Notes: generated by a model from the letters alone, not told the origin. A stretch of DNA of 38,673 nt from Coprothermobacterota bacterium (GCA_026389415.1 JAPLHX010000190.1:1-38673), one strand, 5' to 3'. Positions 9,435-33,474 are shown, counted from the stretch's first letter. Made by a program: numbers and translations.

Positions 9435-9437
9435 CGT

Positions 9438-10565: not shown

Positions 10566-10572
10566 GTCCGTT

Positions 10573-11835: not shown

Positions 11836-11944
11836 GGATACTCCTTTCTAGAGACTCTCTGCTTCATCGTGGAGATTTGCTCAATAAGTTAATATTATCA
11901 ATATAAAAACAATCCTTCTGCATTAAACAACGTAAGGAGCAAAT
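11836..11944. promoter_or_regulatory. AT-rich divergent control region between the HisD-like operon and the Fe-ADH/SDR pair
   Basis: The 109-nt spacer is much AT-richer than the flanks. It has TTGCTC followed 16-17 nt later by AT-rich -10-like hexamers (CAATAT/AATATA). It also has an inverted repeat ATATT-N3-AATAT at 11893-11905, which is a possible operator. Confidence 0.3.
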
Positions 11945-13117: not shown

Positions 13118-13139
13118 ATAAACCCAAGGAGGTATTTGT

Positions 13140-14910: not shown

Positions 14911-15407
14911 GAATCAGCTCCTTCTGGATAGACCCGGTCAGGCTTTGGCTCAATATAACCCGGTTGTCGCTTGTAAATCTCAGCAATTAAACCTAAATCC
15001 TCTTGTGTCGAGAGATAGGTGAAGGTCTCATCGACCCAAGTTCCGCTTTGAAGTACCTGCAGCCCTTGGTTTTTAGCTAATTCCATTGTGCGGTCATAAT
15101 CCTTCACGGCAAAAGCTAGGTGATGCAGGCCTTCGCCATGCTCACGTAAGAATTCGGCATGGATGCTCCCGTCGTCCAAGGGCTGGATCAGTTCCAATTC
15201 AACTCCCCCCAGATCGGTAAGCGCAATGCGCATACGGTACGGTTGAAGTTGGTTATGCACGATCATTTTCTGAAGCTGATCCGGCCCCAGCTCATAAATA
15301 GCCCACGGTCCGATGCCATACTTATTGGTATACTGCTGCATTGAGGCTTCCAGGTTTGAAACCACCACTCCAACTTGCAGGATGCGCTGAAATAAAGGTT
15401 TGTCCAT
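14907..15407 (-). CDS. VOC (glyoxalase/bleomycin-resistance/dioxygenase fold) family protein, methylmalonyl-CoA-epimerase-like size
   Basis: 166 aa with ILQVGVVVSNLEASMQQY in the first beta-alpha-beta-beta-beta module and GEGLHHLAFAVKDYD in the second. GGGAGG SD. Confidence 0.65.
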   Translation of the reverse strand: MDKPLFQRILQVGVVVSNLEASMQQYTNKYGIGPWAIYELGPDQLQKMIVHNQLQPYRMRIALTDLGGVELELIQPLDDGSIHAEFLREHGEGLHHLAFAVKDYDRTMELAKNQGLQVLQSGTWVDETFTYLSTQEDLGLIAEIYKRQPGYIEPKPDRVYPEGADS

Positions 15408-15421
15408 AGCACCTCCCAGAT

Positions 15422-16393: not shown

Positions 16394-16406
16394 AATTTCG
16401 CTCTCC

Positions 16407-17369: not shown

Positions 17370-17430
17370 TTAGCCAACCCCTTTCTGCATCATGAGCAAC
17401 TCAGATGGCTCAGCCATTCTCACCATGTAA

Positions 17431-18600: not shown

Positions 18601-18606
18601 TCTTCC

Positions 18607-19650: not shown

Positions 19651-19653
19651 GGA

Positions 19654-21207
19654 TCAACCCTTTCCCACAGTCTGGTCTATGACATTGGAGACCAAACCTT
19701 GTACAGAGCGGTAGATTTCGAGTTCATTGAACTCAGATCGCTGGAAATTACGAATTGCTTTTCCTTCAAACAGCACAATGATTCGATCGCAAACGATGAG
19801 AAGGTCGTCAATCCCCGGCGAAGTGATGACCACGCCGGCATTTAAGGCCAGCTTCTCTTTGATGGATTTTAGGATGCTTTCCTTGGCTGCGATGTCTATC
19901 CCCTTGGTTGGTTCATCGAGCAGGAAAACTTTTGCTTGAGTGGAGGCTACCCTACCACAGAGGACCTTTTGTCGGTTGCCACCACTGAGATTTTGCACTT
20001 CCTCTTCGGTGGAGCTGGTTAGGATCCCGAAGTCTCGTATTAGATTTTGCACCAGAGTTCGCTCTCGAGTATTTTGCATTAGGAAGTGCCGGGCAATGCT
20101 TACAAGAAAAGACAGTGAGAGATTCTTGCGCACGCTTAGGACATTGATTACGCCTTCATCATCCCGATCTTCTGTTAAGTAGACAATCCCTTCGTCCAAA
20201 GCGTCCCAGCTCTTTGAAAAACGCTTTTTTTCTTTTCCCTCGATTTGAATGAACCCTTTCTGTGTAACATCAATACCCGCAATAGCCTTGAGGATTTCGG
20301 TTCGACCGCTTCCAACCAGCCCGGCCAAACCTAGGATTTCCCCTCGGTGCACCTCAAAATGAATATCCTCAAACGATCCTTCCCGGGTGAACTCTTCCAC
20401 GTTTAAAACGGGGATCTGGTCAAAAAAAGGGCTTTGAGCCGCTTCTTGAGTGGTTTGTGCTGGTGTGCAGTAGGATTCCCCGACTATCATTGAGCAAAGT
20501 TGATCCTTGTCGGCAGAGGACCGCTCAACAGTTTCTACTACTTTAGCATCACGAATTACTGTAACCTGGTCACAAATTTCTAGGATCTCATCCATTCGGT
20601 GGGAAATGAAGATGATAGATTTGCCCAGCGACTTCTGCTCCCTTACGAGTTGATAGAAGTAATCCTGTTCCCGCTGAGAAAAAGAGGTTGTGACCTCGTC
20701 CAGAATGACGATATCGGTATTTTCCAGGAAAAATGCTTTCAGTGCAAGGAAGATTTGCTGCTCACTTAGGGTAAGATCCCGCATCTTACGGCCTATATCA
20801 ATGTGAAAACCCGCTTGATTGAAAATTCGCTGCGTATGATCTTGCATTTGCTTCCATTTGAGAAAACCTAGGCGATTTTGTTCAAAAGCCGGGAGAAACA
20901 AATTTTGAACGAGGCTGAAATCGGGAATCGTCTCTGGTTTTTGTGTGCAGATCGCAATGCCTGCTTGTTTCGCACGCAAGGGCGTCAGGTGGCTATATTC
21001 TTTGCCTTTGATGATAATCTGACCGGTTGACGGAGGGATGATACCGGAGAGAATCGTGACCAACGTGCTTTTACCGGCTCCGTTTTTACCAATAATCCCG
21101 TGGACCTTCCCACGTTGAAATTGAATATTGGCATTTTCCAATGCCACAGTACCTGGATAAATCTTGGTCAGAGAGCGAACCTCTAAGATAGTTTCAGCGT
21201 CAGGCAT
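19654..21207 (-). CDS. CUT2-type carbohydrate ABC transporter ATP-binding protein (tandem ATPase domains, RbsA/MglA-like)
   Basis: 517 aa with Walker A GKNGAGKST, signature LSEQQ and Walker B ILDEVT in domain 1. Domain 2 is degenerate (GLVGSGRTE, LSGGNRQK, LLDEPTKGID). GAAGGAAACT SD. Confidence 0.85.
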   Translation of the reverse strand: MPDAETILEVRSLTKIYPGTVALENANIQFQRGKVHGIIGKNGAGKSTLVTILSGIIPPSTGQIIIKGKEYSHLTPLRAKQAGIAICTQKPETIPDFSLVQNLFLPAFEQNRLGFLKWKQMQDHTQRIFNQAGFHIDIGRKMRDLTLSEQQIFLALKAFFLENTDIVILDEVTTSFSQREQDYFYQLVREQKSLGKSIIFISHRMDEILEICDQVTVIRDAKVVETVERSSADKDQLCSMIVGESYCTPAQTTQEAAQSPFFDQIPVLNVEEFTREGSFEDIHFEVHRGEILGLAGLVGSGRTEILKAIAGIDVTQKGFIQIEGKEKKRFSKSWDALDEGIVYLTEDRDDEGVINVLSVRKNLSLSFLVSIARHFLMQNTRERTLVQNLIRDFGILTSSTEEEVQNLSGGNRQKVLCGRVASTQAKVFLLDEPTKGIDIAAKESILKSIKEKLALNAGVVITSPGIDDLLIVCDRIIVLFEGKAIRNFQRSEFNELEIYRSVQGLVSNVIDQTVGKG

Positions 21208-21229
21208 AGTTTCCTTCTATTTATCAGGA

Positions 21230-21275
21230 TGAAAAAAGAAGTGCTTGTTGGCAAATTCCTTCACCAACAAGCACT
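21230..21275 (-). terminator. intrinsic terminator/attenuator hairpin inside the operon, after the SBP and SDR genes
   Basis: Minus-strand reading, starting 11 nt after the SDR stop: AGTGCTTGTTGG-tgaaggaatttg-CCAACAAGCACT-TCTTTTTTC. That is a perfect 12-bp stem (21264-21275 pairs with 21240-21251), a 12-nt loop and a U-rich tail. It lies about 25 nt upstream of the ATPase RBS. Confidence 0.7.
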
Positions 21276-21286
21276 ATTGACAATCT

Positions 21287-22090
21287 TTAGGACATCACCG
21301 TGCCGCCGCACACGTTAATCCCCTGCCCCGTTATGTAGCCTGAATCTTCAGAAGCGAGAAACAGGGCAAGCCTGGCAACATCTTCCGGTTGAGCAAACCG
21401 ACGGAAAGGTACCATGGACTCATATCCCTCCCGGATGACCGTAGGGTCCTTACCTTCTTTGGCTGCCAGCTCCAGCTCAAGATCTCGCTCCATATCCGTA
21501 TCGACAAAACCGGGACAAATCGCATTGACGTTGATCCCATAGGGAGCCATTTCGTATGCTAGGCAACGAGTAAATCCGAGGACTCCATGTTTCGAGGCTG
21601 TGTAAGCTGATGTGGCAGCTTCACCAATTCTGGCCATGATTGAGGCTAAATTAATGATTCGCCCCTTTGTCTGCAAGCGGATCATCTCTCGAATAACAGC
21701 CTTGGCGCAAAGAAAAACTCCTTTGAGGTTGACATCCAGAATGTAGTCCCATTCCTCTTCGGACAGTTCGATAACCCGGTTTCCCTTGCACACACCAGCG
21801 TTATTCACCAGGATATCGATGGTGCCCATTTCTTTGACGGCTCTCTGCACTGCGGCTTCTACATCTGCCCAATGGCGAACGTCCACGCTTTGCATGAATA
21901 TACTGCCGGTAGCACCGACTTGCTGGATTTCTTTGGTAGTCTTCGCCAAAAGCTCTTCATTGACATCCACTAGAAAAAGGTGAGCTCCTGCTTGAGCAAA
22001 TCGGTTGGCAATGGCTTTTCCGATACCTCGAGCAGCGCCCGTGATGAACGCCGTTTTATTAAAAAGTTGAAGAGAGTCAATCGAGCTCAT
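21287..22090 (-). CDS. short-chain dehydrogenase/reductase (classical SDR), between the SBP and ATPase genes of the ABC operon
   Basis: 267 aa with TGAARGIGKA, NNAG and YTASKHG. By eye, roughly half of its positions are identical to the SDR at 13140-13922. Confidence 0.85.
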   Translation of the reverse strand: MSSIDSLQLFNKTAFITGAARGIGKAIANRFAQAGAHLFLVDVNEELLAKTTKEIQQVGATGSIFMQSVDVRHWADVEAAVQRAVKEMGTIDILVNNAGVCKGNRVIELSEEEWDYILDVNLKGVFLCAKAVIREMIRLQTKGRIINLASIMARIGEAATSAYTASKHGVLGFTRCLAYEMAPYGINVNAICPGFVDTDMERDLELELAAKEGKDPTVIREGYESMVPFRRFAQPEDVARLALFLASEDSGYITGQGINVCGGTVMS

Positions 22091-22102
22091 TGCTGGAGCA
22101 CG

Positions 22103-23236
22103 TTATGGGGAGACGGCAACGACATTTTCATACAAACGAGGGTCGGTGGGGGAAACCTCTTGAGGGCAAAATGCTGACAACAGCTTGATGTCCAACCCCT
22201 CGGCGCCCGCGGTGTTATTGACGACTTCTGCCGGTGACCAGATCGCTCCTTCTTCAACAATCGTGTCTCCCTCTTTGGGCGTGGGTTGATTAGTGAGGAT
22301 CTTGTAAAGCAACTCCACAGCCATTTCTCCCTCGGCAAGGCAGGGTTGTTCTGTCATGCAGAAGAATTCATCGTTCTGCAGTAGCACCAGACCTTCGGGG
22401 CCGATGCAAATTCCGGCGGTTACGAATTTCTTGGGGTCCAAACCGGCTTGTTTAATCGCGCTCACAGCACCAGTTCCCATTACGTCCGGTGTCTGCACAA
22501 AGATACCTACAACCTGGTCACCAAAGCGGGTGAGGTAGTCAGCAACACCGCGGAATGTATCATCGTTGTTCCAGTTGCCGTTGCATTGTACGACATTCAG
22601 TTTGTCTTTGTACTGATCGATGATGGAGTGAAAGGCCTTGGTTTCGATTCCGGCCCAAGACTCTGGAATCAGATCACCCAGTACTTCGATGACAACACCG
22701 GTCGGCATTTCCCCACCGTTCCTTTTCTTGATCTCATTTAAGAACAAGTTGGTCAAACGGATGGTTGTATCAGCGATATCGAGGTTAATGTGGTACGCCA
22801 CCTTGCCACCAGTGGGGGAGTTGTCGGTGGCAACTACCGGTATGCCGGCATCATTCAGTTTCTTAATGCCGGGAATGATCGCGACAGGATCCCATGAGCT
22901 ACCGTTGATATATCCATCGATACCCATCGTTATCAGGTTGTCAATATTTGTCAGCTCGCGTTGGGAATCATTGTCAGCCGAGAGAACTGTCAGTTTAATA
23001 CCGAGTTCCTTGGCCTTTTTTTCTGCTCCAATCTGAATGGCTTTTACAAACGGAGCAGTTAAATCGCGTACATTTAGACCAAAGTGGTATTCCTTCGGTG
23101 GTGGCGTAGTTGACGTAGGGGTTGTCTGGGTTGCGGTGGGGGAGGAAGTCTGAGGAGCCGAGCAACTGAAAATGAGAAGAGTACAAACGAGGAAAACTGT
23201 GCCAATGCTAAAACTCCGAGCTAGCTTACAAATCAT
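22103..23236 (-). CDS. periplasmic-binding-protein type I (RbsB-like) sugar/polyol-binding lipoprotein
   Basis: 377 aa. The signal peptide has a lipobox-like LLIFSC followed by a Thr/Pro-rich linker (SSPTATQTTPTSTTPPP). The remainder is a PBP-I fold with blocks such as LTVLSADNDSQRELTNIDNLITMGIDG and AGIPVVATD. AAAGGAGG SD. Confidence 0.8.
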   Translation of the reverse strand: MICKLARSFSIGTVFLVCTLLIFSCSAPQTSSPTATQTTPTSTTPPPKEYHFGLNVRDLTAPFVKAIQIGAEKKAKELGIKLTVLSADNDSQRELTNIDNLITMGIDGYINGSSWDPVAIIPGIKKLNDAGIPVVATDNSPTGGKVAYHINLDIADTTIRLTNLFLNEIKKRNGGEMPTGVVIEVLGDLIPESWAGIETKAFHSIIDQYKDKLNVVQCNGNWNNDDTFRGVADYLTRFGDQVVGIFVQTPDVMGTGAVSAIKQAGLDPKKFVTAGICIGPEGLVLLQNDEFFCMTEQPCLAEGEMAVELLYKILTNQPTPKEGDTIVEEGAIWSPAEVVNNTAGAEGLDIKLLSAFCPQEVSPTDPRLYENVVAVSP

Positions 23237-23266
23237 TTACGAACCTCCTTTGATTGATTGGATAGT

Positions 23267-23306
23267 ATTATGGAAACAACCTCAAGACCTTGTCAATAAT
23301 GTCAAT
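23267..23306 (-). promoter_or_regulatory. sigma-70-like promoter with tandem ATTGACA direct repeat upstream of the SBP gene
   Basis: Minus-strand reading: ATTGACA-TT-ATTGACA (23306-23291), then 18 nt, then CATAAT (23272-23267). This ends about 30 nt before ATG 23236. The proximal TTGACA is a perfect -35 hexamer. Confidence 0.4.
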
Positions 23307-23322
23307 CTGTTTATACTTTAAG

Positions 23323-23811
23323 CTAAATTTTCGGGTGGCTTTCCTTGGCTGCTGGTTTGAGTGTTTTCTGCACCGCACGCACAATCGACGTATACCCGGT
23401 ACAACGGCAAAGATTGCCGCGCAGATACTGACGAATCTCCTCTTCACTGGGGTTGGGATTTTCGTCCAGCAAGGCTTTGGCTGAAACCAACATCCCCGGC
23501 GTACAGAAGCCGCACTGTACCGCGCCCTCTTCCAGGAAAGCTTGCTGCAAAGGGTGAAGGTTCCGATAATCTCCCAGACCCTCTACCGTAGTGATTTCCG
23601 ACCTATCTGCCAAAACGGCTAAAGTCAGGCAGCTCAGTACGGCTTTCCCATTCATGATGATCGTACAGGCGCCACACTCGCCAATGCCACAGCCATATTT
23701 GGCTCCTGTCAGATCCAGGCGTTCACGCAGCACGTTCAGCAGCAAGTCGTTGTCCTCTACTTCAAGTTGGTGTGGTTGTCCATTGACCGTCAGACGAATT
23801 GTTCGGCTCAT
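23323..23811 (-). CDS. molybdenum hydroxylase set 2, [2Fe-2S] small subunit (CoxS/XdhC-FeS type)
   Basis: ORF trimmed to ATG 23811 (MSRTIRLTVNGQPHQLEV), which overlaps the FAD-subunit stop as ATGA. Motifs CGIGECGACT, QCGFCTPG and CRCTGY are present. Confidence 0.85.
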   Translation of the reverse strand: MSRTIRLTVNGQPHQLEVEDNDLLLNVLRERLDLTGAKYGCGIGECGACTIIMNGKAVLSCLTLAVLADRSEITTVEGLGDYRNLHPLQQAFLEEGAVQCGFCTPGMLVSAKALLDENPNPSEEEIRQYLRGNLCRCTGYTSIVRAVQKTLKPAAKESHPKI

Positions 23812-24698
23812 AGAACACCTCCTGCCCGAATCCAGGCTGCCTGCAAGACCTCCTCCAGTATCACCTGACATACCTGGCGACGGTATTTGGCTGTGGAGCG
23901 AATGTCATCAATGGGAACAATGGCCTTCGCTCCCGCCTCTGCAGCCTGTCGAAGCAAGTTAGAGTCAACGACTGCCCCTTCCAGTAATTGCTCTACCTGC
24001 AAGATGCGAACCGGAGTGGGCGCAACCGAACCAACGGCCGCTCGGCAGAGGATGCAAACGGTTCCTCGGCGTTGGAGGTAAGTCGCCGCATTGACCTTGG
24101 CAATGTCACAGGAGACCCGGCCCAACTTCAAGAAAGCAGAACCGGAATCAGGAAGGGGCGCTGGGAGACAGATTTCGGTTAACAATTCACCGGGCGCAAG
24201 ACAAGAAGATCCCGGTCCCAGAAAGAATTGTGTCAAGCGTACCAGGCGTTCCTGACCCGATTTCTGCAGGCGCAATTGGGCATCGAAGGCCAGCAGGGGT
24301 GGGGCCGTGTCAGCCGCAGGAGAGGCATTGCATAGATTCCCCCCGAGGGTAGCCATATTGCGAATGGCCGGCGCCGCCATGGACCGAAGGGCTTCATATA
24401 AGGCAGAGTATTCTCGCTGGATGGCAGGGTAGTGCTCTGCTTCAGATAGGGTTACGGTGGCACCCAAGCGGAGTCCTTGCTCATTGGTTTGGATCTGCTG
24501 TAGTTCCGGCACTCGCTGAAGCCCGATCAGGATTTCTGGTTGAACCATTTGCCGCTTGATTTTTATCAACAAGTCGGTGCCCCCTGCTAGGATGGCGACT
24601 TGATCCCCAGACTGAGAGCAGAGGTTTAGGGCGTCAGTCAAATTGGAGGGCTCTAGGCAGCGGAACCGAAACGGGAGGATTTTGCTGTCCACCGGCAT
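23808..24698 (-). CDS. molybdenum hydroxylase set 2, FAD-binding medium subunit (CoxM/XdhB type)
   Basis: 296 aa with ILAGGTDLL and ATLGGNLCNASPAADTAPPLLA (FAD_binding_5) plus a CO-dehydrogenase flavoprotein C-terminal-like end (DDIRSTAKYRRQV). The start overlaps the upstream stop as TAATG. Confidence 0.85.
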   Translation of the reverse strand: MPVDSKILPFRFRCLEPSNLTDALNLCSQSGDQVAILAGGTDLLIKIKRQMVQPEILIGLQRVPELQQIQTNEQGLRLGATVTLSEAEHYPAIQREYSALYEALRSMAAPAIRNMATLGGNLCNASPAADTAPPLLAFDAQLRLQKSGQERLVRLTQFFLGPGSSCLAPGELLTEICLPAPLPDSGSAFLKLGRVSCDIAKVNAATYLQRRGTVCILCRAAVGSVAPTPVRILQVEQLLEGAVVDSNLLRQAAEAGAKAIVPIDDIRSTAKYRRQVCQVILEEVLQAAWIRAGGVL

Positions 24699-27040
24699 TA
24701 CTGATCACCCTTCCGTTCGCACAGCGCTTGGAGAAACCGTTCCGGTGTAATCGGCAGACGAGTGAAACGAATTCCTGAGGCATTGAAGATGGCATTGGCA
24801 ATGGCCGACGCCACAGAGTTCCCCGCCGCCTCACCCAATCCTTTAGCGCCGAATGGGCCGGAAGGTTCATACGTGTTTGCGAAATACGTTTGGAAATCCT
24901 TGATGTAGGGCATCTCGTTCGTGGAAAAGATCTTATTGTCCGTGATGAAACCCTGACATAGCAGTGCACCAGAGTCTGGATCATTCTCGGTCTCTTCGCT
25001 TAGAGCATAGCCACCGTACCGCATCAGCGACCCTTCCAGCTGCCCGGCTGCCAAATCCGGATTGATGAGGGTGCCACAATCCGCCAGTGAAACGGCGCGA
25101 GCAATGCGAATGATTCCCGTCAGCGTGTCCAGCTCCACTTCCACGAAATTGGTGACGAAAGACGGTGGGCAATTCTTTTGACGGTAACTACCACTACCCA
25201 TCGCTGTGCCCCAACCGTTGACCATTGCCATGCGTGCCACTTCTGCCAGGGACATTCGCTTCACATTGGAACCGATGGACTGGACCGCGGTCTCTGCCAA
25301 TTTTGAATCGAAGACCATCTCCAATTGTTGCGGAAATTCACCCAATAGGCGCCCGGCAAAATCCAAGATCATTGTCTTGGCTTGCTGGGCAGCTTGCAGC
25401 ACGGCAGCTCCACCAACATACGTCCCGCGGCTGGCGTGCGTACAGACGTCATAACAAGTGGTGGTTGTATCCACGGCGGACAATCCCACCTTGTCCAGCG
25501 GTACTTGAAAAACCTCAGCCGCGATCTTTGCATGAGCGTCATTGGTGCCCCCACCAAGGTCCTGCAGCGGAGTTATCACATCAAGCGATCCATCCTCATT
25601 GACCTTGACTGTGGCAGAAGAGAGATCGACCACTTCTGCCGGCAGGGGCGAGCCGGCGCCGGACGTGTGAAAGCCGCGGGCCAAGCCGATGCCACGGCGG
25701 TATCGGCCGCTTTTTACTTCTGGCATTTGGCGACGATCCCAACCGATCCATTCCGCTCCGACGCGCAAGGTTTCTTCTACGCCGCAGCTCTTGATGATCG
25801 ATCGTACCGTAGGCCCCTGTCCCCAGAACTCATCTCCCGCTCCGACGTAATTCAACAAACGAAACTCAATCGGGTCAAACCCGCATTGGTGTGCAATCTC
25901 ATCGATGAGGGACTCCACGGCAAAGTTCATTTGGGGGTTGCCATAGCCCTGCATGGCACATGTAGGCACTTTGTTGGTGTAAATCGCTTTGCCTTCGTAC
26001 TGAATGTTTTTCCACTTATAGAGGGAAACCATCCAACCACAAATGCTGCCCAGGTACGGATAGGCTTGGATTTGGTGAGCACCGATATCCACCAGCACAT
26101 CGGCAATCACCCCCTGAATGGTCATGTCCCCATTCACGCCAATTTTCAGATGAATCTGACTGGGGTATTTGGTGTGAGAGTAGAAATCTTCCTCACGGGA
26201 AGAGACCAGTTTCACTGGCCGCATAGCTTTGAGGGCAAGAGCGGCGCAGATTGGAATCACGGTGTTCATTTGGATTGAGGAGCCAAAGGATCCGCCCAAG
26301 GGGGTTTTTTTAACTTTGACCTTGCTCATGGGGAGGGAAAAAATCCGGGCTAGCAAATGGCGCACATTATGGATGGACTGGGTCGTACACCAGACCGTGA
26401 CTCCTCCATCAGGGTCCGGTCGAACCACTGCGGACTTGGTTTCCATTTGATGGTGATAGACCCGAGGTAAGGAGTAGTTCCGTTCGAAGACAAAGTCACT
26501 CTGTGCCAAAGCTTGGAAGGCGTCACCCACGGTGATCTGGCGTTGACAGGCGATGTTGTTTGAAACAGCGACGACTTCATCACCAAAGAAAACTTCTTGA
26601 TAGAGGGAAGGGCTGGTTGCACTCTGTGCGGCCACCGGGTCAAGAACGGCCGGTAGAAGCTGATAGTTCACCTTCAGCGCAGACAAGGCTCGAAAAGCCA
26701 ACTCCTCGCTGGGAGCAGCCACTGCGGCAATCGGCTCCCCCACGTGGCGAGCCACCCGCGGCAGCACACGCCGATCCCGGTAGGTGCGGGCCGGTACGCT
26801 GACGGTACGTTCGTTGTAAAACAAATCCGGCACATCGTCCGGGACAAGGACCACCGCGCCCATGGCTTCTGCCTCGCTCGTGTCAATGGCAAGGATCTTT
26901 GCGTGCGGGTGGGGACTGCGAAGACAGAGAGCGCTCCACATCCCCGGGAGCGTGATATCCTGGGTAAACCGCTCGGCGCCGGTCACTTTTCCAATCCCGT
27001 CCTTGCGGGGAGTGACTGTTCCGATCGTGGTGAAGCTCAT
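24698..27040 (-). CDS. molybdenum hydroxylase set 2, molybdopterin-binding large subunit (xanthine dehydrogenase/aldehyde oxidase family)
   Basis: 780 aa with N-terminal IGKVTGAERFTQDITLPGM, GGSFGS, the variant active-site block TCAMQGYGNPQMNFAVES, and C-terminal PFGAKGLGEAAGN containing the catalytic Glu. The start overlaps the stop of the other large subunit as ATGA. Confidence 0.85.
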   Translation of the reverse strand: MSFTTIGTVTPRKDGIGKVTGAERFTQDITLPGMWSALCLRSPHPHAKILAIDTSEAEAMGAVVLVPDDVPDLFYNERTVSVPARTYRDRRVLPRVARHVGEPIAAVAAPSEELAFRALSALKVNYQLLPAVLDPVAAQSATSPSLYQEVFFGDEVVAVSNNIACQRQITVGDAFQALAQSDFVFERNYSLPRVYHHQMETKSAVVRPDPDGGVTVWCTTQSIHNVRHLLARIFSLPMSKVKVKKTPLGGSFGSSIQMNTVIPICAALALKAMRPVKLVSSREEDFYSHTKYPSQIHLKIGVNGDMTIQGVIADVLVDIGAHQIQAYPYLGSICGWMVSLYKWKNIQYEGKAIYTNKVPTCAMQGYGNPQMNFAVESLIDEIAHQCGFDPIEFRLLNYVGAGDEFWGQGPTVRSIIKSCGVEETLRVGAEWIGWDRRQMPEVKSGRYRRGIGLARGFHTSGAGSPLPAEVVDLSSATVKVNEDGSLDVITPLQDLGGGTNDAHAKIAAEVFQVPLDKVGLSAVDTTTTCYDVCTHASRGTYVGGAAVLQAAQQAKTMILDFAGRLLGEFPQQLEMVFDSKLAETAVQSIGSNVKRMSLAEVARMAMVNGWGTAMGSGSYRQKNCPPSFVTNFVEVELDTLTGIIRIARAVSLADCGTLINPDLAAGQLEGSLMRYGGYALSEETENDPDSGALLCQGFITDNKIFSTNEMPYIKDFQTYFANTYEPSGPFGAKGLGEAAGNSVASAIANAIFNASGIRFTRLPITPERFLQALCERKGDQ

Positions 27041-29331
27041 CGTTTTCCTTCCGGTTTTTGTGCAATCGCCATCCGAATCTTCTCTGGTGTCACCGGCAGG
27101 TCTGCAATGCGGACGCCTACGGCATCCTCGATCGCGTTCACCAGAGCGGGGGCAATTCCAACCATCGGTGGCTCTCCAATTCCCTTTGCTCCATAGGGTC
27201 CCACCCCCGATCCGCTCTCCAGCAGAATCACTGTAATATCCGGCACATCTACCGCTGTCGGTATCAGGTATTCGGCAAAGGAAGGAGTCTGGATCACACC
27301 ATTATGGATTGCCATGTCCTCAAAAAGGGCATAGCCTACTCCTTGAATGCAGCCACCCTCGATCTGGCCTTCCACGATTGCAGGATTGAGTGCTTTTCCC
27401 ACATCGAAGGCAGCGACGATCTTGTTGATCTGGACTTGACCTGTTTGCTCGTCTACTTCCACTTCTGCAGCGTAGGCACCGAAAGTGAAATCCGGATGCG
27501 TTTGACCCTGCAAAACCTCTGAAGCAGGAATATCGGTGAAGGGTGCATTGAACTGGGCTTCGACAAACAACTCTTCCCCTTCGCCGGACAGACGATTGAT
27601 CACTTCGACCAGGGAAACACCCTCTTTTCGGCTAGATTCGACCTCAATCCGGTTTAGAGTGATGATGAGGTTCTCAATTGGGACGTTTAACAGTTGACCG
27701 GCCTTAATCAAAAGTCGCTTTTTCAGCTCGTTAGCAGCCTTCAGCGTGGCATTGCCCGACATCATCAATTGGCGAGTGGCCGTGGTGGTTCCGGCGAGCG
27801 GAGTTAATTGTGAGTCGGTAATGTGCAACTTGATGCGTTCCAGGGGAACTCCCAGTTCTTGGGCGACGATTTGGCACAGAATATGTCCCTGTCCGCCCCC
27901 CACGTCCGGTACGCCACAGCGGATGATGGCCGAACCGTCCAGCTCAAGCTTGATATAGGAGCGAGAGGTGTCGTGTAAAAAAGTCAAACGGCCATAACTA
28001 CCCATTCCGATCGCTACACCTCGACCCAACTTTCTGCCGCCCTCTGCCGATCCCAGGGGTCCTAAGCCCGACCAAGCCTTTTGGGCAAGCTCCGTCAAGG
28101 GGATGGGTCTCTCGTAAATCCAGCCGGTGGCGAACGCCTCTCCTGTCTGCAAATAGTTACGCTCGCGGAATTCTAACGGGTCCAGACCCAAGATATGCGC
28201 CAACTTCTGTATTTGAGACTCATAAGCAAAGTTGGCTTGTGGTGCACCGAAACCGCGAAACGCTGACGTAATTGCGGTATTGGTCATCACCGCATAGGAG
28301 TCAACCTTCACGTTTGGTATCTGATAAGGCCCCGCAGCGTTTACAGTGGCATAGAGCAAAACCCAAGGTGACAAGGCTGAATAAGCACCACAATCCGAAA
28401 TCAAGCGAGCTTGCAGGGCTACCAGTTTCCCATCTTTGGTAGCACCCGTCTTGTATTCCATCTGAAATGGATGACGTTTGCAGTGGTAGAGCAAAGATTC
28501 TGCCCGGGTGTATGTCAATTTCACAGGCTTGCGTGTCTTCCATGCCAGCAGCGCCAGATAAGATTCCACTGTAATGTCTTCTTTCCGACCGAAACCGCCC
28601 CCGATCCAGGTGCCAAGATATCGAACCTTGCTGTGGGGGAGATTCAGAATCTCCGCTACTTCGCGGAAGTGCTCAATCACTTGGCTGGATACGCGGATGT
28701 TGATGGTTCCATCATCGTCACTCCAAGCCAATCCTGATTCAGGTTCAAGGTAAGCATGATCTTGATAGGGTACCCTGTAGGTCCCCTCCACTATCACGTC
28801 CGCTTGGGCAAAACCCTGATCCACATCGCCTTGGCGGATTTTAAAGTGAGATGCGATATTGTTTGGTTTTTCTCCCACCTGACGGGAACCTGGCTCCATG
28901 GCTCCAACGGAATCAAATACACCTGGAAGTGGTTGCAGATCGACTTCAATTAACTGGCAGGCTTGCTCGGCAAGGTCGGGCGATTCCGCTGCCACCAGTG
29001 CGATGGGCTCGCCATAGTATCGCACTTCCTTTTCGGCCAAAACTCGATAGAGCCCCTCGAACTGGCCGCCTACATCGGTGCTTTGGCCGAAACGCGCTCG
29101 AAGATTGTTATTGGGCACATCCTTGGCGGTGATTACTGCATGAACCCCAGGTAACTGCTCCGCTCGCTCGGTCCGCACACCAAGGAGAATCGCAGCCTGT
29201 ACTTTGGCCCGAAATACTTTGCCATAGAGCATGCCGGGCAGCGTGAAATCATCGGCATATTGCAGCAAACCACTGGCTTTGGGCCCGGCATCGTATTTGG
29301 GCACGCTCTGGCCAATTACACGATCCTTCAT
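27037..29331 (-). CDS. molybdenum hydroxylase set 1, molybdopterin-binding large subunit (xanthine dehydrogenase/aldehyde oxidase family)
   Basis: ORF trimmed to ATG 29331 (MKDRVIGQSVPKYDAGPKASG), preceded by GGGAGGTGG and 1 nt after the FeS-subunit stop. It has GGGFGRKE, TSAFRGFGAPQANFAYES and PYGAKGIGEPPMVG. Confidence 0.85.
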   Translation of the reverse strand: MKDRVIGQSVPKYDAGPKASGLLQYADDFTLPGMLYGKVFRAKVQAAILLGVRTERAEQLPGVHAVITAKDVPNNNLRARFGQSTDVGGQFEGLYRVLAEKEVRYYGEPIALVAAESPDLAEQACQLIEVDLQPLPGVFDSVGAMEPGSRQVGEKPNNIASHFKIRQGDVDQGFAQADVIVEGTYRVPYQDHAYLEPESGLAWSDDDGTINIRVSSQVIEHFREVAEILNLPHSKVRYLGTWIGGGFGRKEDITVESYLALLAWKTRKPVKLTYTRAESLLYHCKRHPFQMEYKTGATKDGKLVALQARLISDCGAYSALSPWVLLYATVNAAGPYQIPNVKVDSYAVMTNTAITSAFRGFGAPQANFAYESQIQKLAHILGLDPLEFRERNYLQTGEAFATGWIYERPIPLTELAQKAWSGLGPLGSAEGGRKLGRGVAIGMGSYGRLTFLHDTSRSYIKLELDGSAIIRCGVPDVGGGQGHILCQIVAQELGVPLERIKLHITDSQLTPLAGTTTATRQLMMSGNATLKAANELKKRLLIKAGQLLNVPIENLIITLNRIEVESSRKEGVSLVEVINRLSGEGEELFVEAQFNAPFTDIPASEVLQGQTHPDFTFGAYAAEVEVDEQTGQVQINKIVAAFDVGKALNPAIVEGQIEGGCIQGVGYALFEDMAIHNGVIQTPSFAEYLIPTAVDVPDITVILLESGSGVGPYGAKGIGEPPMVGIAPALVNAIEDAVGVRIADLPVTPEKIRMAIAQKPEGKR

Positions 29332-29332
29332 G

Positions 29333-29908
29333 CTAGCCACCTCCCAGCAGCAAATACCCAGCCTTGGCCTTCTCCTGATCCGTCGCAGTCGGATTGGGAG
29401 AATCAAGTGAATCCGCTGCTTCCGAGACAAAAGCTGTCTTCCCGGCTACCGCTGCGATCGCATCAATAATCTTTTGATAGCCGGTACAGCGGCAGAGATT
29501 CCCAGCAATGCCTTGGCGGATCTCCGATCGAGTCGGTGTTGGCTTGATCCTCAGCAGGTTATAGGCAGCCATCAACATGCCTGGTGTGCAAAACCCGCAT
29601 TGGATGGCTCCATGTTGTATGAAACTGTCTTGTAGGTTTGCCATGAGGGCATCCCGTCCTAAGCCGCGGATCGTGTACACACGTTTTCCGTTCGCTTGCG
29701 CTGCTAAAACCAAACATGATTTGACCATCCGGCCATCGAACAAGACGGCACATGTTCCACAATCTCCCCGCCCACAACCGCATTTGACTTCAGTAGCAAG
29801 CGCTCTGTGCCGCAAGAAGTCCAACAAAGACTCGCTTGCTCCAGCTACGGCTTGAAAGGGTTGATCGTTTAAGAAAATGGTAATCATCGATTCCGTTAAC
29901 TGATCCAT
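29333..29908 (-). CDS. molybdenum hydroxylase set 1, [2Fe-2S] small subunit
   Basis: 191 aa with CGCGRGDCGTC, QCGFCTPG and CRCTGY, plus a C-terminal tail of about 35 aa not found in set 2. GGAGGAGCA lies upstream of the ATG. Confidence 0.85.
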   Translation of the reverse strand: MDQLTESMITIFLNDQPFQAVAGASESLLDFLRHRALATEVKCGCGRGDCGTCAVLFDGRMVKSCLVLAAQANGKRVYTIRGLGRDALMANLQDSFIQHGAIQCGFCTPGMLMAAYNLLRIKPTPTRSEIRQGIAGNLCRCTGYQKIIDAIAAVAGKTAFVSEAADSLDSPNPTATDQEKAKAGYLLLGGG

Positions 29909-29917
29909 TGCTCCTCC

Positions 29918-30766
29918 CTACGCTAGAGCTTTGCGCATGGCTTGTTTGAATAAAGCGTCGGCGAGCATAACGCGATACTCCCTTGAGCCACGCAAGTCGC
30001 TGATGGGGTGAAGTTCCGACTGGGCAATAGCGGCCGCCTTCGCAAACACTGATTCATCCGGCACTTGGCCGCATAAGAACGCTTCAGTTTGGGTCGCACG
30101 CAGCGGCACAGGGGCTAGGGCACCAAACCCAACCCGTGCTGCTTGGAAAGTGTCGGTTCCTTTCAGAAGCACACCACAATTGGCCACAGAGATTACCATT
30201 GCTTGGCGTAAACCGAACTTGATATAGGCACCTTGGTAAGAACTCGTGCTGTGAAAAAACAGGGAGGTGACCAACTCTTCCGGTGCCAGAACGGTCTCTC
30301 CCGGGCCGCGGAAAAATTGGGTAAGCGGAATTTCCCGACGCCCTTTTGCTAAACTCTCTGCAATCAGGGTCGTTTCCAATAAAAGCAATGGAACGGCGGT
30401 ATCGGCTGCAGGTGAAGCATAAGCTAGATTGCCTCCAATGGTGGCTCGATTTCGCACCAATGGGTCCCCGAAGACCTGGCAGGCCTGCCAGAGCACATTG
30501 GCCTGTTCTCGAATCGTGCGACTGGCCGCCAGGTCACTGATTAAAGTCAGACTCCCCAGGAAAACCATATCGCCTTCCATTCGGATACCGCTCAGTTCAT
30601 CTAAGCCGGTCACATCAACCAATACGCAGTCCTTCACTTTCCCCGCTTGTATGTCCGGTAGGACGTTGGTTCCACCCGCAATCACTTTGGCACGACCAGC
30701 GTAATCGTGGATCACTTTCAATGCCTCAACAAGGTTTCTTGGGCGGTAGTAGCTTATTGCATTCAA
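29918..30766 (-). CDS. molybdenum hydroxylase set 1, FAD-binding medium subunit
   Basis: ORF 29918-30787 trimmed to the second TTG (30766; MNAISYYRPRNLVEALKV), which lies 8 nt after AAGGAGGG. It has IAGGTNVL and ATIGGNLAYASPAADTAVPLL. Confidence 0.8.
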   Translation of the reverse strand: MNAISYYRPRNLVEALKVIHDYAGRAKVIAGGTNVLPDIQAGKVKDCVLVDVTGLDELSGIRMEGDMVFLGSLTLISDLAASRTIREQANVLWQACQVFGDPLVRNRATIGGNLAYASPAADTAVPLLLLETTLIAESLAKGRREIPLTQFFRGPGETVLAPEELVTSLFFHSTSSYQGAYIKFGLRQAMVISVANCGVLLKGTDTFQAARVGFGALAPVPLRATQTEAFLCGQVPDESVFAKAAAIAQSELHPISDLRGSREYRVMLADALFKQAMRKALA

Positions 30767-30794: not shown

Positions 30795-30823
30795 ATTATA
30801 TGTCAACAAATTTGAAATATAAA
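30795..30823 (-). promoter_or_regulatory. candidate promoter of the twin Mo-hydroxylase operon
   Basis: Minus-strand reading: TTTATA (30823-30818), a 17-nt spacer, then a perfect TATAAT (30800-30795), about 30 nt upstream of the TTG start. The -35 element is weak. Confidence 0.35.
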
Positions 30824-30869: not shown

Positions 30870-31424
30870 ATGAAGAAGAATGGTATCGCACAAAGCTTGC
30901 ATCGCATTCGAGCTGGGGCGGGCCTGTCTTTACAGGAACTTGCTGGAAAGACGGGGTTATCATTGCCATATCTGTCACGCGTAGAAAATGATAAAGCCAA
31001 CATCAGTGTTGTCAACTTGCGCTTGATTGCGAATGCTTTGGGAGTCCCGTTGGCGACGTTTTTTATGGACGAAGCCCAATCAACAATCAAATTATCCAGC
31101 AAATCGCAACATCGAAAGCTAGTTCTAAACGTTTGCAATGGAAGGAAAGTGACGGAAGAATGGCTTCTTACGGATCCGGAAGCCAAACTCGAACCAGCCA
31201 TCATCACAATGCCGTCTGGAACATACAGCAATCCTCTCTCCCACGAGGGATTTGAATTCATTTGGTTGATATCAGGGGAGATCTCGTATGCCGTAGGCTC
31301 GGAAACCTATCAGCTGGTCCGAGATGATGTATTGTATTATCCAGCCCTGTTGTCTCATCATTTCGCAAACGACGGCAAGAAGAAGGCTGTGTTCTTGGTT
31401 GTAGCCACACCTTGGTCGTATTAA
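30870..31424 (+). CDS. XRE-family HTH plus C-terminal cupin transcriptional regulator (PuuR-like architecture)
   Basis: 184 aa with the HTH_3 block LHRIRAGAGLSLQELAGKTGLSLPYLSRVENDKANISVVNLRLIANALGV and a cupin half (HEGFEFIWLISGEISYAVGSETYQLVRDDVLYYPALLSHHFAN). Confidence 0.8.
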   Translation: MKKNGIAQSLHRIRAGAGLSLQELAGKTGLSLPYLSRVENDKANISVVNLRLIANALGVPLATFFMDEAQSTIKLSSKSQHRKLVLNVCNGRKVTEEWLLTDPEAKLEPAIITMPSGTYSNPLSHEGFEFIWLISGEISYAVGSETYQLVRDDVLYYPALLSHHFANDGKKKAVFLVVATPWSY

Positions 31425-31454: not shown

Positions 31455-33260
31455 CTAGGTTGTAACCCTGAGAAAAAACTCGATCGCTTTTCGATCCACT
31501 TTCAGCCTTTCCAGCGTTGACAGTGTGGGTACTCCATCGGAGTCCCATCCGCGAAGCTGATAGTATTCATCCAACGCTTCCAGGTACGCATCCTCCGGGA
31601 TAAATACACCGGCTGGTGGTCCTTCTTTCAACGCATCCCGATGAATTCGCTGGGGCATTAAATCATCCTTGCGGCGGAACCCCTCAGCCAGATTAAAGAT
31701 ACGGGCCATATTCCAGATGCGGTCGCCAAGGTTTTCTAGGTCGGCTACGGAATCGTTGCGACCCGTAACCAGGTTTAGCACTTCAGCCTGGATCTCTGGG
31801 CTTGCGGCCCAAAAATCGCAAAAGATCATCGCGTATTTATAGGTCGATGCGTCCTGCAGTTCCTTCATCAGTTTCGCTTTCCCTTCGAAGGTGAGCGGGG
31901 GGTAAAGGGTGTCGAAAGCTTCCTTCCCGACCGGCCAGCCCCGGTTGTGATCCGCACCGCGATCGGCGGTCCCATAAGCTAAAGACATCGTCCAGGAGCC
32001 GCGAGGATCGTACCCGGGGAATTCCTGACCTTTTACGTGCATGGCAAATTCCTGGCCGCCATATTTTTGGGATAGATATTTGACCCCGCGGGACAGCTCA
32101 GCGCCGATATCCCTGAGTTCCGCCACCAAAGTTGGCACTTTAAGATATTTCTCAACTTCACCAAAGCGAATGCCGAAGTCATGAATCCCCCGCTCGGTCA
32201 TTTCCATGGCGAACGCCAGGGTCCCCCCCAAAGACATCGTATCAATCCCCAGGCCGTCGCAGAGCTCATTGAATTCTGTGATTGCTCGTAGTTCAAATAT
32301 GCCACAGTTCGAGCCGCATAAAGCAATCGTTTCGTACTCTGGCGCTTCCCGCACAGCACCATCCTCAAACTGCATCACTCCCCGACAGCCTAGGCGACAC
32401 CCCAAGCAAGCCCGGCGCCCAACGCGGAGTTTTTTGATTGCCTCCGTATCCACCTGGGCGTAAGAGGCCGCAGTACCCTGTTGAAAATTACACACCGGAA
32501 GAAGCCCCGCGTCTTGCGCCAAACCCACCAAAATCGGAGTGCCATCGGTGCGTACCCATTCATTGTCGGGGGAATCAGCGCTTTCATGGTGGATTTCACG
32601 GATTCGCTGGTAGAAAAGAGCCTCATCGGCAAGGGGTGTCTTCTTCGTCCCCTCCAGGTAGATTGCTTTGAGCTTCTTGGATCCAAATACGGCTCCGATC
32701 CCACCTCGACCGGCTTGACGAGTGGATTCGGAAGTTACGCAAGCCATTGGTATCAGGTTTTCGCCGGCCTTTCCGATGGCCAGCACAACCCCTTTCTTAC
32801 CGTGCCTATGCTTGAGAGTTCTTTCTACATCGCGCGCATCCTGGCCCCAAAGATCTTTGGCCTCACGGATCTGCACATCGTCTTCATGGACATAGAGATA
32901 AACAGGGGCCGTAGCAGCTCCTTCTACAATGATGCCATCGTAACCGGCCCGCTTTAGAGCATAGGAGCAAGCCCCACCGATGTAGGAATCGGAAAGCGTC
33001 CCGGTCAAGGGGGATTTGGCGATCAAGACTAGCTTGGCCGTAGTAGAGACCGTCGTGCCTTGGAGGGGACCGGTCATTAGGATCAGCTTGTTTTGGGCAG
33101 AGAGAGGGTCGGTTTTTGGTGGGACTTCATCCAGCAGATAGCGCAACCCCAGGCCCTTGCCTCCGACGTATAGATCGAGCCACTCTTCGTTGGGCCGTTC
33201 ATGGCTGATCTTTCCAGTCGTTAAGTTCACTCGCAGTAGATTGTTGTGGTAACCAAACAT
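31455..33260 (-). CDS. aor: aldehyde:ferredoxin oxidoreductase (AOR family, tungsto-/molybdo-pterin plus [4Fe-4S])
   Basis: ORF trimmed to ATG 33260 (MFGYHNNLLRVNLTTGKISHE), preceded by GGAGG. It has the AOR N-terminal domain and the cluster motif CLGCRLGCRG (CxxCxxxC). It also has GADHNRGW and YAMIFCDFWA. Confidence 0.85.
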   Translation of the reverse strand: MFGYHNNLLRVNLTTGKISHERPNEEWLDLYVGGKGLGLRYLLDEVPPKTDPLSAQNKLILMTGPLQGTTVSTTAKLVLIAKSPLTGTLSDSYIGGACSYALKRAGYDGIIVEGAATAPVYLYVHEDDVQIREAKDLWGQDARDVERTLKHRHGKKGVVLAIGKAGENLIPMACVTSESTRQAGRGGIGAVFGSKKLKAIYLEGTKKTPLADEALFYQRIREIHHESADSPDNEWVRTDGTPILVGLAQDAGLLPVCNFQQGTAASYAQVDTEAIKKLRVGRRACLGCRLGCRGVMQFEDGAVREAPEYETIALCGSNCGIFELRAITEFNELCDGLGIDTMSLGGTLAFAMEMTERGIHDFGIRFGEVEKYLKVPTLVAELRDIGAELSRGVKYLSQKYGGQEFAMHVKGQEFPGYDPRGSWTMSLAYGTADRGADHNRGWPVGKEAFDTLYPPLTFEGKAKLMKELQDASTYKYAMIFCDFWAASPEIQAEVLNLVTGRNDSVADLENLGDRIWNMARIFNLAEGFRRKDDLMPQRIHRDALKEGPPAGVFIPEDAYLEALDEYYQLRGWDSDGVPTLSTLERLKVDRKAIEFFLRVTT

Positions 33261-33474
33261 TGGCTTGCCTCCAGCGATTAATAAAGTAGATTCTCTCATG
33301 GGCTATGCTGTCATCCCAAGGCTCACCTCGGCCATCAGCAGTGCCGGCGAATCCAGCTACAATGATCTCCGTATGGCACCAATCCGACCGCGGTTTGCCA
33401 GGACATGCTGCCGCAGGCTGTTAACTTGAACCGTTGGCAGCCTGACTGCCATTTAGATGCCGGGTTTTGCCTCA

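Follow-up and report, generated by a model that had tools for sequence, protein, structure and literature searches.

A 38,673-nucleotide stretch of DNA from a Coprothermobacterota bacterium (GCA_026389415.1, JAPLHX010000190.1:1-38673; the whole stretch is called the window below) carries, on its minus strand between positions 30766 and 23323, six open reading frames (ORFs) in the order flavin adenine dinucleotide (FAD), 2Fe2S, molybdenum (Mo), Mo, FAD and 2Fe2S subunit. These were named M1, S1, L1, L2, M2 and S2 (Table 1). The Pfam scores of all six proteins were well over the gathering scores, assigning them to the three-subunit bacterial xanthine oxidase or Mo-hydroxylase superfamily; S1 also has a C-terminal tail of about 35 amino acids. 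The genes encode two separate three-subunit Mo hydroxylases, each with a Mo-pterin, an FAD and a 2x[2Fe-2S] subunit, and it is this pair, its recurrence in other genomes and its possible pathway that we describe here.

Table 1. Features of the window discussed in the text, with positions counted from its first nucleotide.
Feature	Coordinates	Strand	Details
M1, FAD subunit set 1	29918..30766	-	282 aa; FAD_binding_5 + CO_deh_flav_C
S1, 2x[2Fe-2S] subunit set 1	29333..29908	-	191 aa; Fer2 + Fer2_2
L1, molybdopterin subunit set 1	27037..29331	-	764 aa; Ald_Xan_dh_C + MoCoBD_1 + MoCoBD_2
L2, molybdopterin subunit set 2	24698..27040	-	780 aa; Ald_Xan_dh_C + MoCoBD_1 + MoCoBD_2
M2, FAD subunit set 2	23808..24698	-	296 aa; FAD_binding_5 + CO_deh_flav_C
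S2, 2x[2Fe-2S] subunit set 2	23323..23811	-	162 aa; Fer2 + Fer2_2
Promoter-like TTTATA-17-TATAAT upstream of M1	30795..30823	-	consensus match; site count not above shuffled controls
Divergent XRE-type helix-turn-helix (HTH) + cupin regulator	30870..31424	+	184 aa; Pfam HTH_3 + Cupin_2
Upstream unit: tungsten-type aldehyde:ferredoxin oxidoreductase + class-III (putrescine-type) aminotransferase	31455..34833	-	
18.8-kb indel island, outside module	4463..23308	.	blastn of L004 vs window
IorA/IorB-like 2-oxoacid:ferredoxin oxidoreductase	1693..4175	-	IOR_alpha 578 bits vs cut-off 651; POR domain

Base-by-base reading of the junctions gave TAG, 9 nt and ATG between M1 and S1, and TAG, c and ATG (a 1-nt gap) between S1 and L1, followed by overlaps of ATGA between L1 and L2 (27040-27037), TAATG between L2 and M2 (24700-24696) and ATGA between M2 and S2 (23811-23808). 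A GGAGG-like site was present 5' of the start at each of the five junctions. This re-reading exactly reproduced the gene order and junctions given in an earlier annotation made from the sequence alone (the first-pass annotation), with the expected Pfam domains in all six ORFs. Its start choices were also right where a mechanical ORF list had longer genes, namely TTG 30766 for M1, ATG 29331 for L1 and ATG 23811 for S2. The M1 start lies 7 nt 3' of GGAGGG, the alternative TTG chosen by the ORF finder further upstream (30787) has no ribosome-binding site, and the S2 start is preceded by GGCAGGAGG.

Identity between the two sets was 30% for L1 and L2, 32% for M1 and M2 and 46% for S1 and S2, a degree of divergence that marks the sets as old paralogues and bears out the earlier judgment that L1 and L2 are not recent near-identical duplicates. 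Cofactor and catalytic residues, checked by regular expression on the translations, were kept in both sets: both four-Cys motifs in S1 and S2 (8 Cys apiece), the FAD motifs AGGT[DN] and TxGGN in M1 and M2 (AGGTN and TIGGN in M1), the active-site Gln of the large subunits (SSQ in L1, TTQ in L2) and their C-terminal catalytic Glu (GEPP in L1, GEAA in L2). L1 also keeps GGGFGRKE. The Gln and Glu presumably correspond to bovine Q767 and E1261; our alignments to solved xanthine dehydrogenases (XDHs) cover only the neighboring substrate-binding positions. Relative to a 94%-identical locus (L004), ratios of nonsynonymous to synonymous substitution (dN/dS) ranged from 0.05 to 0.22 across all six genes (M1 0.09, S1 0.16, M2 0.22, S2 0.05), indicating that all six are under purifying selection. 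A sediment metatranscriptome contained short contigs on M2 and L2 (98–99% identity) and on L1 (about 95%), too few and too short for mapping the transcript, which hint that both sets are transcribed. With the motifs kept, the low dN/dS and these contigs, neither set is therefore a decaying copy. The inactivation of one set, which the first-pass annotation had allowed for, was not seen, and domains, residues and identities all agree with its description of an operon for two hydroxylases, both complete and intact and divergent from each other.

The window spans a complete contig of an NCBI metagenome-assembled genome. Near-identical sequence was also found in freshwater and sediment metagenome runs, and in four small runs listed under the coded name "organism A", the remaining libraries of which are transcriptomes of the oligo-dT and PacBio kind. 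This "organism A" is probably a eukaryotic host or a sample carrying the bacterium.

To place the pair in a wider context, one genome per GTDB species was scanned. An L2-type gene was present in 278 species; 80 of these loci were fetched and mapped with our own ORF and BLAST script, and the ORFs of 90 loci were clustered and their representatives annotated. L1 and L2 each have hundreds of relatives at 55–76% identity, with the matches to both often lying on contigs of equal length, and across phyla the L1 family is 56–76% and the L2 family 53–71% identical. Relatives occur in Caldisericota, Coprothermobacterota, many Bacillota, Thermodesulfobacteriota and Acidobacteriota/Aminicenantes, and further in Actinomycetota, Chloroflexota, Atribacterota, Aerophobetes and others. 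Because other XDH-family paralogues in these loci are at most 42% identical, the L1 and L2 orthologue groups are well delimited. The paired module was found in at least 54 of the 80 species-level loci, from about 12 phyla. L1 was missing from 26, nearly all of them truncated contigs; the only L1-less loci with about 10 kb on both sides were L051, L062 and L073. Since it recurs in most complete related loci, the pairing goes beyond chance.

The order of the genes varied. L2-M2-S2-M1-S1-L1 was the commonest (38 of 80 loci), M1-S1-L1-L2-M2-S2 was seen in 6 of 80 as well as in the window and in L004-L012, transporter or pathway genes split the sets in 8 loci, and 2 had other arrangements. Junctions within a set were nearly always 20 nt or less, and junctions between sets were tight in 16 of 42 (S2 to M1) and 9 of 23 (L1 to L2) cases. 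The first-pass annotation had stressed the mirror order with abutting large-subunit genes, which in this comparison does not define the module: the mirror order with overlapping L genes is one permutation of two separable, co-inherited operon halves.

These arrangements bear on whether the two enzymes form one mixed complex, (M1S1L1)(L2M2S2), in which an L1-L2 heterodimer would take the place of the usual L-L homodimer and channel an intermediate between the Mo sites. Enzymes of this family are dimers of heterotrimers joined via their L subunits, the pair is nearly always co-located, and L1 and L2 overlap by ATGA both here and in other M-S-L-L-M-S loci. Against this, between-set junctions are loose in most cases when within-set junctions are not, the sets are parted by other genes in at least 8 loci, and set 2 stands alone in the long loci L051, L062 and L073; we also know of no case in which two different Mo subunits pair as a heterodimer. 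Because the spacing between sets is variable and the sets are separated in some loci, a mixed complex is probably not obligatory. We regard it as improbable, while noting that it is compatible with the explanation favored below.

Two single-locus variants were noted. In L010 (a Caldisericota-like JGI contig, 5487-7084) M1 is called in two parts (241 and 257 aa), neither of which has a Pfam match on record, whilst its sister contigs have a single 290-aa M1, so that M1 of L010 may be disrupted in one population or reflect an assembly error. One L1-family protein of 935 aa (P0186) has Fer2 and Fer2_2 on record in the same chain, a natural S1-L1 fusion.

None of the six subunits reached an NCBIfam equivalog cut-off in comparisons with XDH types, 4-hydroxybenzoyl-CoA reductase (4-HBCR), CO dehydrogenase, PaoC, pterin aldehyde oxidoreductase and glyceraldehyde dehydrogenase. 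The best matches were the XDH subunits PucD and XdhA. XDH proper was rejected, as L1 scored 544 against 784 for PucD and L2 478 against 780 for XdhA_XDHase, and every M and S score was under the cut-off of its XDH equivalog model. The purine-binding Glu/Arg pair of XDHs (bovine E802/R880; R. capsulatus E232/R310) is Glu and Tyr in L1, aligned to 1jro_B, and Ile and Ser in L2, aligned to 3sr6_C; L2 aligned to solved XDH also has Gln for Arg912 and Tyr for Phe914. The L2 motifs GGSFGSSIQMN and CAMQGYGNPQ were invariant in 25 family members of 55–69% identity, and for this reason represent a conserved, different active site and not damage.

Other assignments were rejected in the same way. The 4-HBCR model TIGR03194 gave 494 for L1 and 418 for L2 against a cut-off of 995, and the beta-subunit model TIGR03195 (321 positions) aligned only with about residues 1–115 of M1 and M2. 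For nicotinate dehydrogenase of the E. barkeri type, L1 is one chain spanning NdhL and NdhM and is not split, and no nicotinate-fermentation context was found in the window or related loci. Scores for L1 and L2 were 274 and 210 against 991 with the aerobic CO dehydrogenase CoxL model TIGR02416, 319 and 273 against 950 with NF040766, 284 and 213 against 1180 with PaoC, and 431 and 256 against 1100 with pterin aldehyde oxidoreductase (Mop, NF045668). The segment equivalent to the Cys-containing CoxL loop reads AFRGFG in L1 and AMQGYG in L2. None of the analogues named in the first-pass annotation (nicotine, ketone and nicotinate dehydrogenases, XDH) found a match at family level by NCBIfam models.

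We then turned to the genes that accompany the module in the 80 GTDB loci. A branched-chain-type ATP-binding cassette (ABC) transporter was frequent (binding protein in 24 loci, permeases in 21–23, ATPases in 25), as was a cyclic (ring) amidohydrolase (31). A carbamoyltransferase of the ornithine carbamoyltransferase (OTCase) family and a carbamate kinase were each present in 20 loci, aspartate ammonia-lyase (aspartase) and an AroM-family protein each in 7, and an M20 hydantoinase/carbamoylase-family amidase in 4. A D-aminoacylase-like amidohydrolase occurred in 7 loci, in which carbamoyltransferase and kinase were missing. Maturation genes comprised YqeB (9 loci), YqeC (11), MocA (11) and XdhC (4); the YqeB neighbor scored 370 bits against a cut-off of 220 (TIGR03309), pointing to selenium-type maturation genes in related loci. 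Regulators near the module were of XRE-cupin, IclR or PucR type. The closest solved relatives of the periplasmic binding protein are amino-acid binders, which does not by itself identify its ligand. One or more ureide-pathway genes were present in 26 of the 41 loci that reach 18 kb or more. Among cultured bacteria, the full cluster is carried by Ca. Formimonas warabiya DCMF, Neomoorella species (N. stamsii, N. humiferrea, N. sulfitireducens), Desulfosporosinus sp. HMP52 and Anaeroselena agilis.

The genuine aspartate carbamoyltransferase (ATCase) signature (STRT, HPTQ, GRTVHS, TR[IV]Q[RK]ER, HPLP) was present in 18 of 24 carbamoyltransferases beside the module, four others being OTCase-type and two YgeW-type, and the ureidoglycine-type signature HPLA was found in none of the 24. 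Together with the aspartase neighbor, this signature suggests that the open-chain intermediate is N-carbamoyl-L-aspartate. Two non-orthologous kinds of ring amidohydrolase occur, either of which can be found with ATCase and carbamate kinase. One is L-hydantoinase-like, barely over the cut-off of the allantoinase model, with Arthrobacter L-hydantoinase (1gkr) as its best solved relative, followed by allantoinases; the other is a canonical type-I dihydroorotase (389 bits to solved dihydroorotases). Removal of the carbamoyl group appears in three interchangeable forms, namely ATCase with carbamate kinase, the D-aminoacylase-like hydrolase and the M20 carbamoylase.

In three Thermodesulfobacteriota/Deltaproteobacteria loci (L064, L066 and L083) an ornithine-carbamoyltransferase-type gene (HPCQ, HCLP) lies between M2 and S2, with an ATCase-type gene further on in addition. 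The L036 contig ends after such an ornithine-carbamoyltransferase-type gene, leaving S2 and any ATCase-type gene beyond view. Upstream of the module, L024, L045, L046 and L049 carry genes of the reductive-dehalogenase family (TIGR02486, 217 bits), and fumarate-reductase-like flavoprotein genes are also found there in the Acidobacteria loci L045, L046 and L049 and in L083, but not in L024.

Taken together, these data are probably best accounted for if a single N-heterocycle is hydroxylated twice in succession to a cyclic ureide, which leads on to N-carbamoyl-aspartate and ATP. As a portable module of anaerobes, the pair would carry out two water-dependent hydroxylations at chemically different ring carbons, releasing four reducing equivalents. 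A hydantoinase- or dihydroorotase-like amidohydrolase, as seen in the relatives, would open the ring to N-carbamoyl-L-aspartate; ATCase working in reverse, with carbamate kinase, would then convert the carbamoyl group into ATP, or in some lineages a carbamoylase would hydrolyze it instead, and aspartase would yield fumarate. For the two-enzyme module, ureide pathway and downstream steps of the relatives as one whole, we hold this to be the best explanation at slightly better than even confidence; the data themselves show the gene content, the intact state of both sets, the conserved pairing and the sets of neighbors, and from these we infer in which order the reactions run, which way the carbamoyltransferase works and what the substrate is. 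Of the readings in the first-pass annotation, sequential hydroxylation of one N-heterocycle is the one that best fits the comparative data, without the analogues named for it.

Two independent hydroxylases with different substrates, for instance related bases, and with shared regulation and maturation would also account for the very different active sites of L1 and L2, for separable sets that have their own FAD and FeS subunits, and for set 2 standing alone in some loci. This is rendered decidedly improbable by the single transporter and single set of downstream enzymes in each neighboring cluster, and by a pairing that survives permutation of gene order in about 12 phyla.

The main alternative is a purine module, in which a xanthine or hypoxanthine dehydrogenase would act with a second purine hydroxylase or dehydroxylase. 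Such pairs have precedents in the purine hydroxylase and XDH of Clostridium purinolyticum and the XDH and 2,8-dioxopurine dehydrogenase of gut bacteria. [quoted passage not shown] We nevertheless consider a purine module unlikely: the XDH equivalog scores all fall far under the cut-offs, the purine-binding Arg is replaced in L1 and both Glu and Arg in L2, the carbamoyltransferase signature is that of aspartate and not of the YgeW or ureidoglycine type, and aspartase is left unaccounted for. Furthermore, the recurrent neighbors do not include YgfK/UacX, SsnA, HyuA, YgeY, YgeX, genes of the uricase pathway or purine permeases of the NCS2 type.

Further routes to a carbamoylated product were tried and rejected. 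The allantoin/ureidoglycine carbamoyltransferase route, attractive because of the allantoinase model match and a published precedent (PMC4016543), does not fit the genuine aspartate-type signature, and for the 2,8-dioxopurine pathway the key genes are not recurrent neighbors. Oxidation of uracil to barbiturate would involve only a single hydroxylation and would not produce an N-carbamoyl amino acid, no barbiturase-type gene was found, and nothing relevant to such a route was found in the literature searched. For an orotate/dihydroorotate intermediate there is no plausible natural precursor with two hydroxylations, and dihydroorotate dehydrogenase is not a neighbor.

Returning to sequential hydroxylation, we tentatively propose imidazole-4-acetate as the substrate, oxidized at C2 and C5 to 5-carboxymethylhydantoin, while judging this specific assignment rather doubtful. 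It was chosen because it is the only natural compound found that combines a need for exactly two hydroxylations of the Mo type, at sp2 C-H adjacent to a ring N, a product ring plausibly opened by a hydantoinase-like and a dihydroorotase-like enzyme alike, and carbamoyl-aspartate as the product. Its two free ring carbons, C2 and C5, differ in their chemistry; one enzyme might serve C2 and the other C5, together forming an oxygen-independent "imidazole ring oxidase". Imidazole-4-acetate could be derived from histamine or histidine via adjacent aminotransferase and aldehyde:ferredoxin oxidoreductase (AOR) genes and 2-oxoacid:ferredoxin oxidoreductase (IOR) and acyl-CoA-synthetase genes, and N-carbamoyl-L-aspartate would yield aspartate, CO2, NH3 and ATP by a catabolic ATCase and carbamate kinase. 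In line with this, the flanking genes (amine aminotransferase with AOR, IOR with acyl-CoA synthetase) are of arylacetate-forming type, the nearest relative of L1 (NdhL) acts on a carboxylated heteroaromatic, and the AroM family is related to Asp/Glu/hydantoin racemases.

Several observations weigh against the proposed pathway. No ring amidohydrolase, carbamoyltransferase or carbamate kinase was found in the window, or up to 10 kb from the module in the nearest relatives (Caldisericota, Coprothermobacterota and L004); with none near the window's own clade, the pathway logic is therefore transferred from orthologues of 53–72% identity. Ureide genes were also missing from the neighborhood in 15 of the 41 long loci. 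A PyrE-like phosphoribosyltransferase (TIGR00336, 139 bits vs 107), which sits with the ureide genes or beside set 2 in L024, L038, L064, L074 and L083, is unexplained by the pathway; along with the dihydroorotase-like amidohydrolase it keeps the orotate idea as a caveat, and the ATCase and dihydroorotase-like genes could be co-located copies of pyrimidine biosynthesis. We know of no precedent for a catabolic use of ATCase, no support for anaerobic oxidation of imidazole acetate was found in the literature searched, and the substrates of both enzymes are hypothesized from gene context.

We also assessed the surroundings of the module in the window. The promoter-like site of M1 lies in the 104 nt that separate M1 from the divergent XRE-cupin regulator gene. 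A homologue of this regulator stands beside the module in 15 of 80 loci, including Caldisericota (54–56% identity), the 94% relative, Desulfobacterales, Aminicenantes and others, and on this conservation the XRE-cupin protein probably regulates the module; a single promoter under its control would co-transcribe the six genes. The upstream unit of AOR and aminotransferase is kept in the 94% relative, an amino-acid permease also lies upstream on the minus strand, and a class-III aminotransferase and related permease are found beside the module in Thermoleophilia (L042, L079). It is possible that AOR and aminotransferase feed the module (amine to aldehyde to acid), a link we infer from position. 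The AOR (31455-33299) has 614 aa in the window ORF as against 601 aa in most cluster members, and in L004 a second AOR (33% identical) and a ThiS-like gene lie further upstream, past the aminotransferase. Between the aminotransferase and a metallophosphoesterase-like gene, a 282-aa ORF (34954-35802, minus strand) had no Pfam or NCBIfam match. As stated in the first-pass annotation, the window holds no XdhC/CoxF-type or MocA gene: none of XdhC, CoxF, MocA, YqeB and YqeC was found among ORFs of at least 130 aa.

Downstream of S2, the 86-nt gap has no terminator-like hairpin, again as described, and this had been read as an operon link to the ABC/aco unit beyond. That link did not hold. Comparison by blastn showed that L004 1930-13730 corresponds to window 35093-23309 and L004 13732-18195 to window 4462-1, both at 94%, so that in L004 S2 lies directly before IorA/IorB and an ADP-forming acyl-CoA synthetase. 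Because 4463-23308 is missing from this relative, the ABC/aco unit does not belong to the module; the block was not found in any of the 89 other loci either, and a promoter-like TTGACA-18-CATAAT (23296-23267) lies within the 86-nt gap. The first-pass alternative that the pair are aldehyde oxidoreductases, detoxifying aldehydes from the downstream Aco-type complex or the upstream aminotransferase, thereby lost its basis and is largely refuted. Some family members (PaoABC, Mop) do oxidize aldehydes, and AOR with amine aminotransferase lies upstream and aco-like E1/E2 downstream. Yet this reading is highly improbable given the indel, which has its own promoter-like site, the low PaoC and Mop scores, and conserved cross-phylum partners that are ureide-pathway genes and not aldehyde-forming enzymes. 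IorAB-like genes stand beside the module in L004, Atribacterota (L076, L080, L082), Chloroflexi (L086) and Aminicenantes (L090), and IOR with ADP-forming acyl-CoA synthetase flanks it in six lineages.

The island itself encodes a ribose-type (sugar-type) binding protein, ABC genes, two SDRs, aco/pyruvate-dehydrogenase-like E2, E1alpha and E1beta without E3, a glyoxalase-fold protein, an NAD-kinase-like protein, an Fe-dependent alcohol dehydrogenase (Fe-ADH), a HisD-family dehydrogenase and two alpha/beta hydrolases. It also has an Ldh_2-family dehydrogenase (best match sulfolactate dehydrogenase, below cut-off), a nitrilase/carbamoylputrescine-amidase-like CN hydrolase, and LarA-family (malate-racemase-like) and IGPD (HisB)-like proteins. 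The presence of two histidine-biosynthesis paralogues (HisD, HisB-like) inside a catabolic island is curious. In the Thermoleophilia locus L079 a HisD-family dehydrogenase, 47% identical to the window copy at 10573-11835, directly follows L1 and may likewise help to supply a substrate with an imidazole ring.

Mo hydroxylases give anaerobes an O2-free attack on aromatic N-heterocycles, and few of their substrates have been assigned. The superfamily and sequential Mo hydroxylases are already known; the widespread, unassigned two-enzyme module is new, and full-text literature searches found no description of the paired module or of the proposed intermediates in such a context. It occurs in at least 278 species-level genomes of sediment, subsurface, gut and termite-gut anaerobes from about a dozen phyla, and its neighbor genes give a concrete, testable pathway by which such organisms would obtain both ATP and nitrogen from a ring compound that is abundant. 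The analysis also corrects a misreading, the adjacent ABC/aco genes being a strain-specific insertion and not part of the system. If the imidazole-4-acetate proposal is true, the module would provide a widespread and previously undescribed way for anaerobes to degrade histidine's imidazole ring, and ATCase would have its first catabolic role.

Among known enzymes, the E. barkeri nicotinate dehydrogenase NdhFSLM (PDB 3hrd) is the best match for the catalytic core of L1 (170 bits over 176 residues), and the sum of its NdhL and NdhM scores against L1 (303 + 210 bits) exceeds that of 1rm6. It is a selenium-dependent enzyme of an anaerobe, and its FAD, 2x[2Fe-2S] and Mo subunits are as in the module; some relatives of the module adjoin YqeB, YqeC and MocA. 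However, L1 has Tyr where NdhL has Arg (TRAT segment), and the module pairs L1 with a second, very different Mo enzyme. Over the full length, the solved structure closest to L1 (357 bits) as well as to L2 (289 bits) is 4-HBCR of Thauera aromatica (PDB 1rm6), but its beta subunit has an extra [4Fe-4S] insertion that M1 and M2 lack, and the module has no aromatic-CoA context. XDHs (E. coli XdhABC, B. subtilis PucCDE, R. capsulatus, bovine) share the subunit set, the gene order of set 2 (E. coli xdhABC), the Glu of GGGFGxKE in L1 and the active-site Gln and catalytic Glu in L1 and L2, and differ in the purine-binding residues, Arg becoming Tyr in L1 and Glu and Arg becoming Ile and Ser in L2.

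Successive Mo-hydroxylase pairs are known from the nicotine and ketone dehydrogenases of Paenarthrobacter, the isonicotinate and 2-hydroxyisonicotinate dehydrogenases, and the nicotinate and 6-hydroxynicotinate dehydrogenases of B. niacini. They work on the same principle, with two distinct enzymes of the XDH family hydroxylating two ring carbons one after the other; unlike our proposal, these are aerobic pyridine routes without ureide chemistry, and to our knowledge none has a conserved six-gene, cross-phylum module. The best solved relative from this group, 7dqx, scored 247 bits with L1 and 193 with L2.

The 2,8-dioxopurine (reductive uric acid) pathway, with XdhD/DOPDH, YgfK, SsnA, HyuA, YgeW, YqeA, YgeY and YgeX (bioRxiv 10.1101/2025.04.24.650524; PMC12507026), is likewise an anaerobic N-heterocycle route with selenium-type Mo hydroxylases and ring amidohydrolases, and gains ATP via carbamoyltransferase and carbamate kinase as proposed here. 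A swap from YgeW/YqeA to UacY is described for this pathway, and some lineages exchange carbamoyltransferase and kinase for a D-aminoacylase-like hydrolase, parallel to the exchangeable carbamoyl removal in our loci. In contrast to the module, its Mo enzyme is an S-L fusion, a reductive dearomatizing flavoenzyme is required, the carbamoyltransferase is of the knotted YgeW type and the end product is diaminopropionate. Clustering of the 90 loci gave none of the XdhD S-L fusion, YgfK/UacX, SsnA, HyuA, YgeY and YgeX as a recurrent neighbor, the XdhD-like fusion and PLP enzyme of Neomoorella being at the edge of that one locus.

Lastly, Rubrobacter xylanophilus has a module of allantoinase, ureidoglycine carbamoyltransferase and carbamate kinase, in which the ATCase-like enzyme beside allantoinase and carbamate kinase is the ureidoglycine carbamoyltransferase (Barba et al., PMC4016543). 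There, a ring amidohydrolase, an ATCase-like enzyme and a carbamate kinase together harvest the carbamoyl group as ATP, as we propose for the module. The signature of its pseudo-ATCase is HPLA, with AIA, AIS or SIA replacing RxQ (PMC4016543, Table 1), whereas 18 of the 24 enzymes near the module have HPLP and RxQ and so an intact aspartate site.

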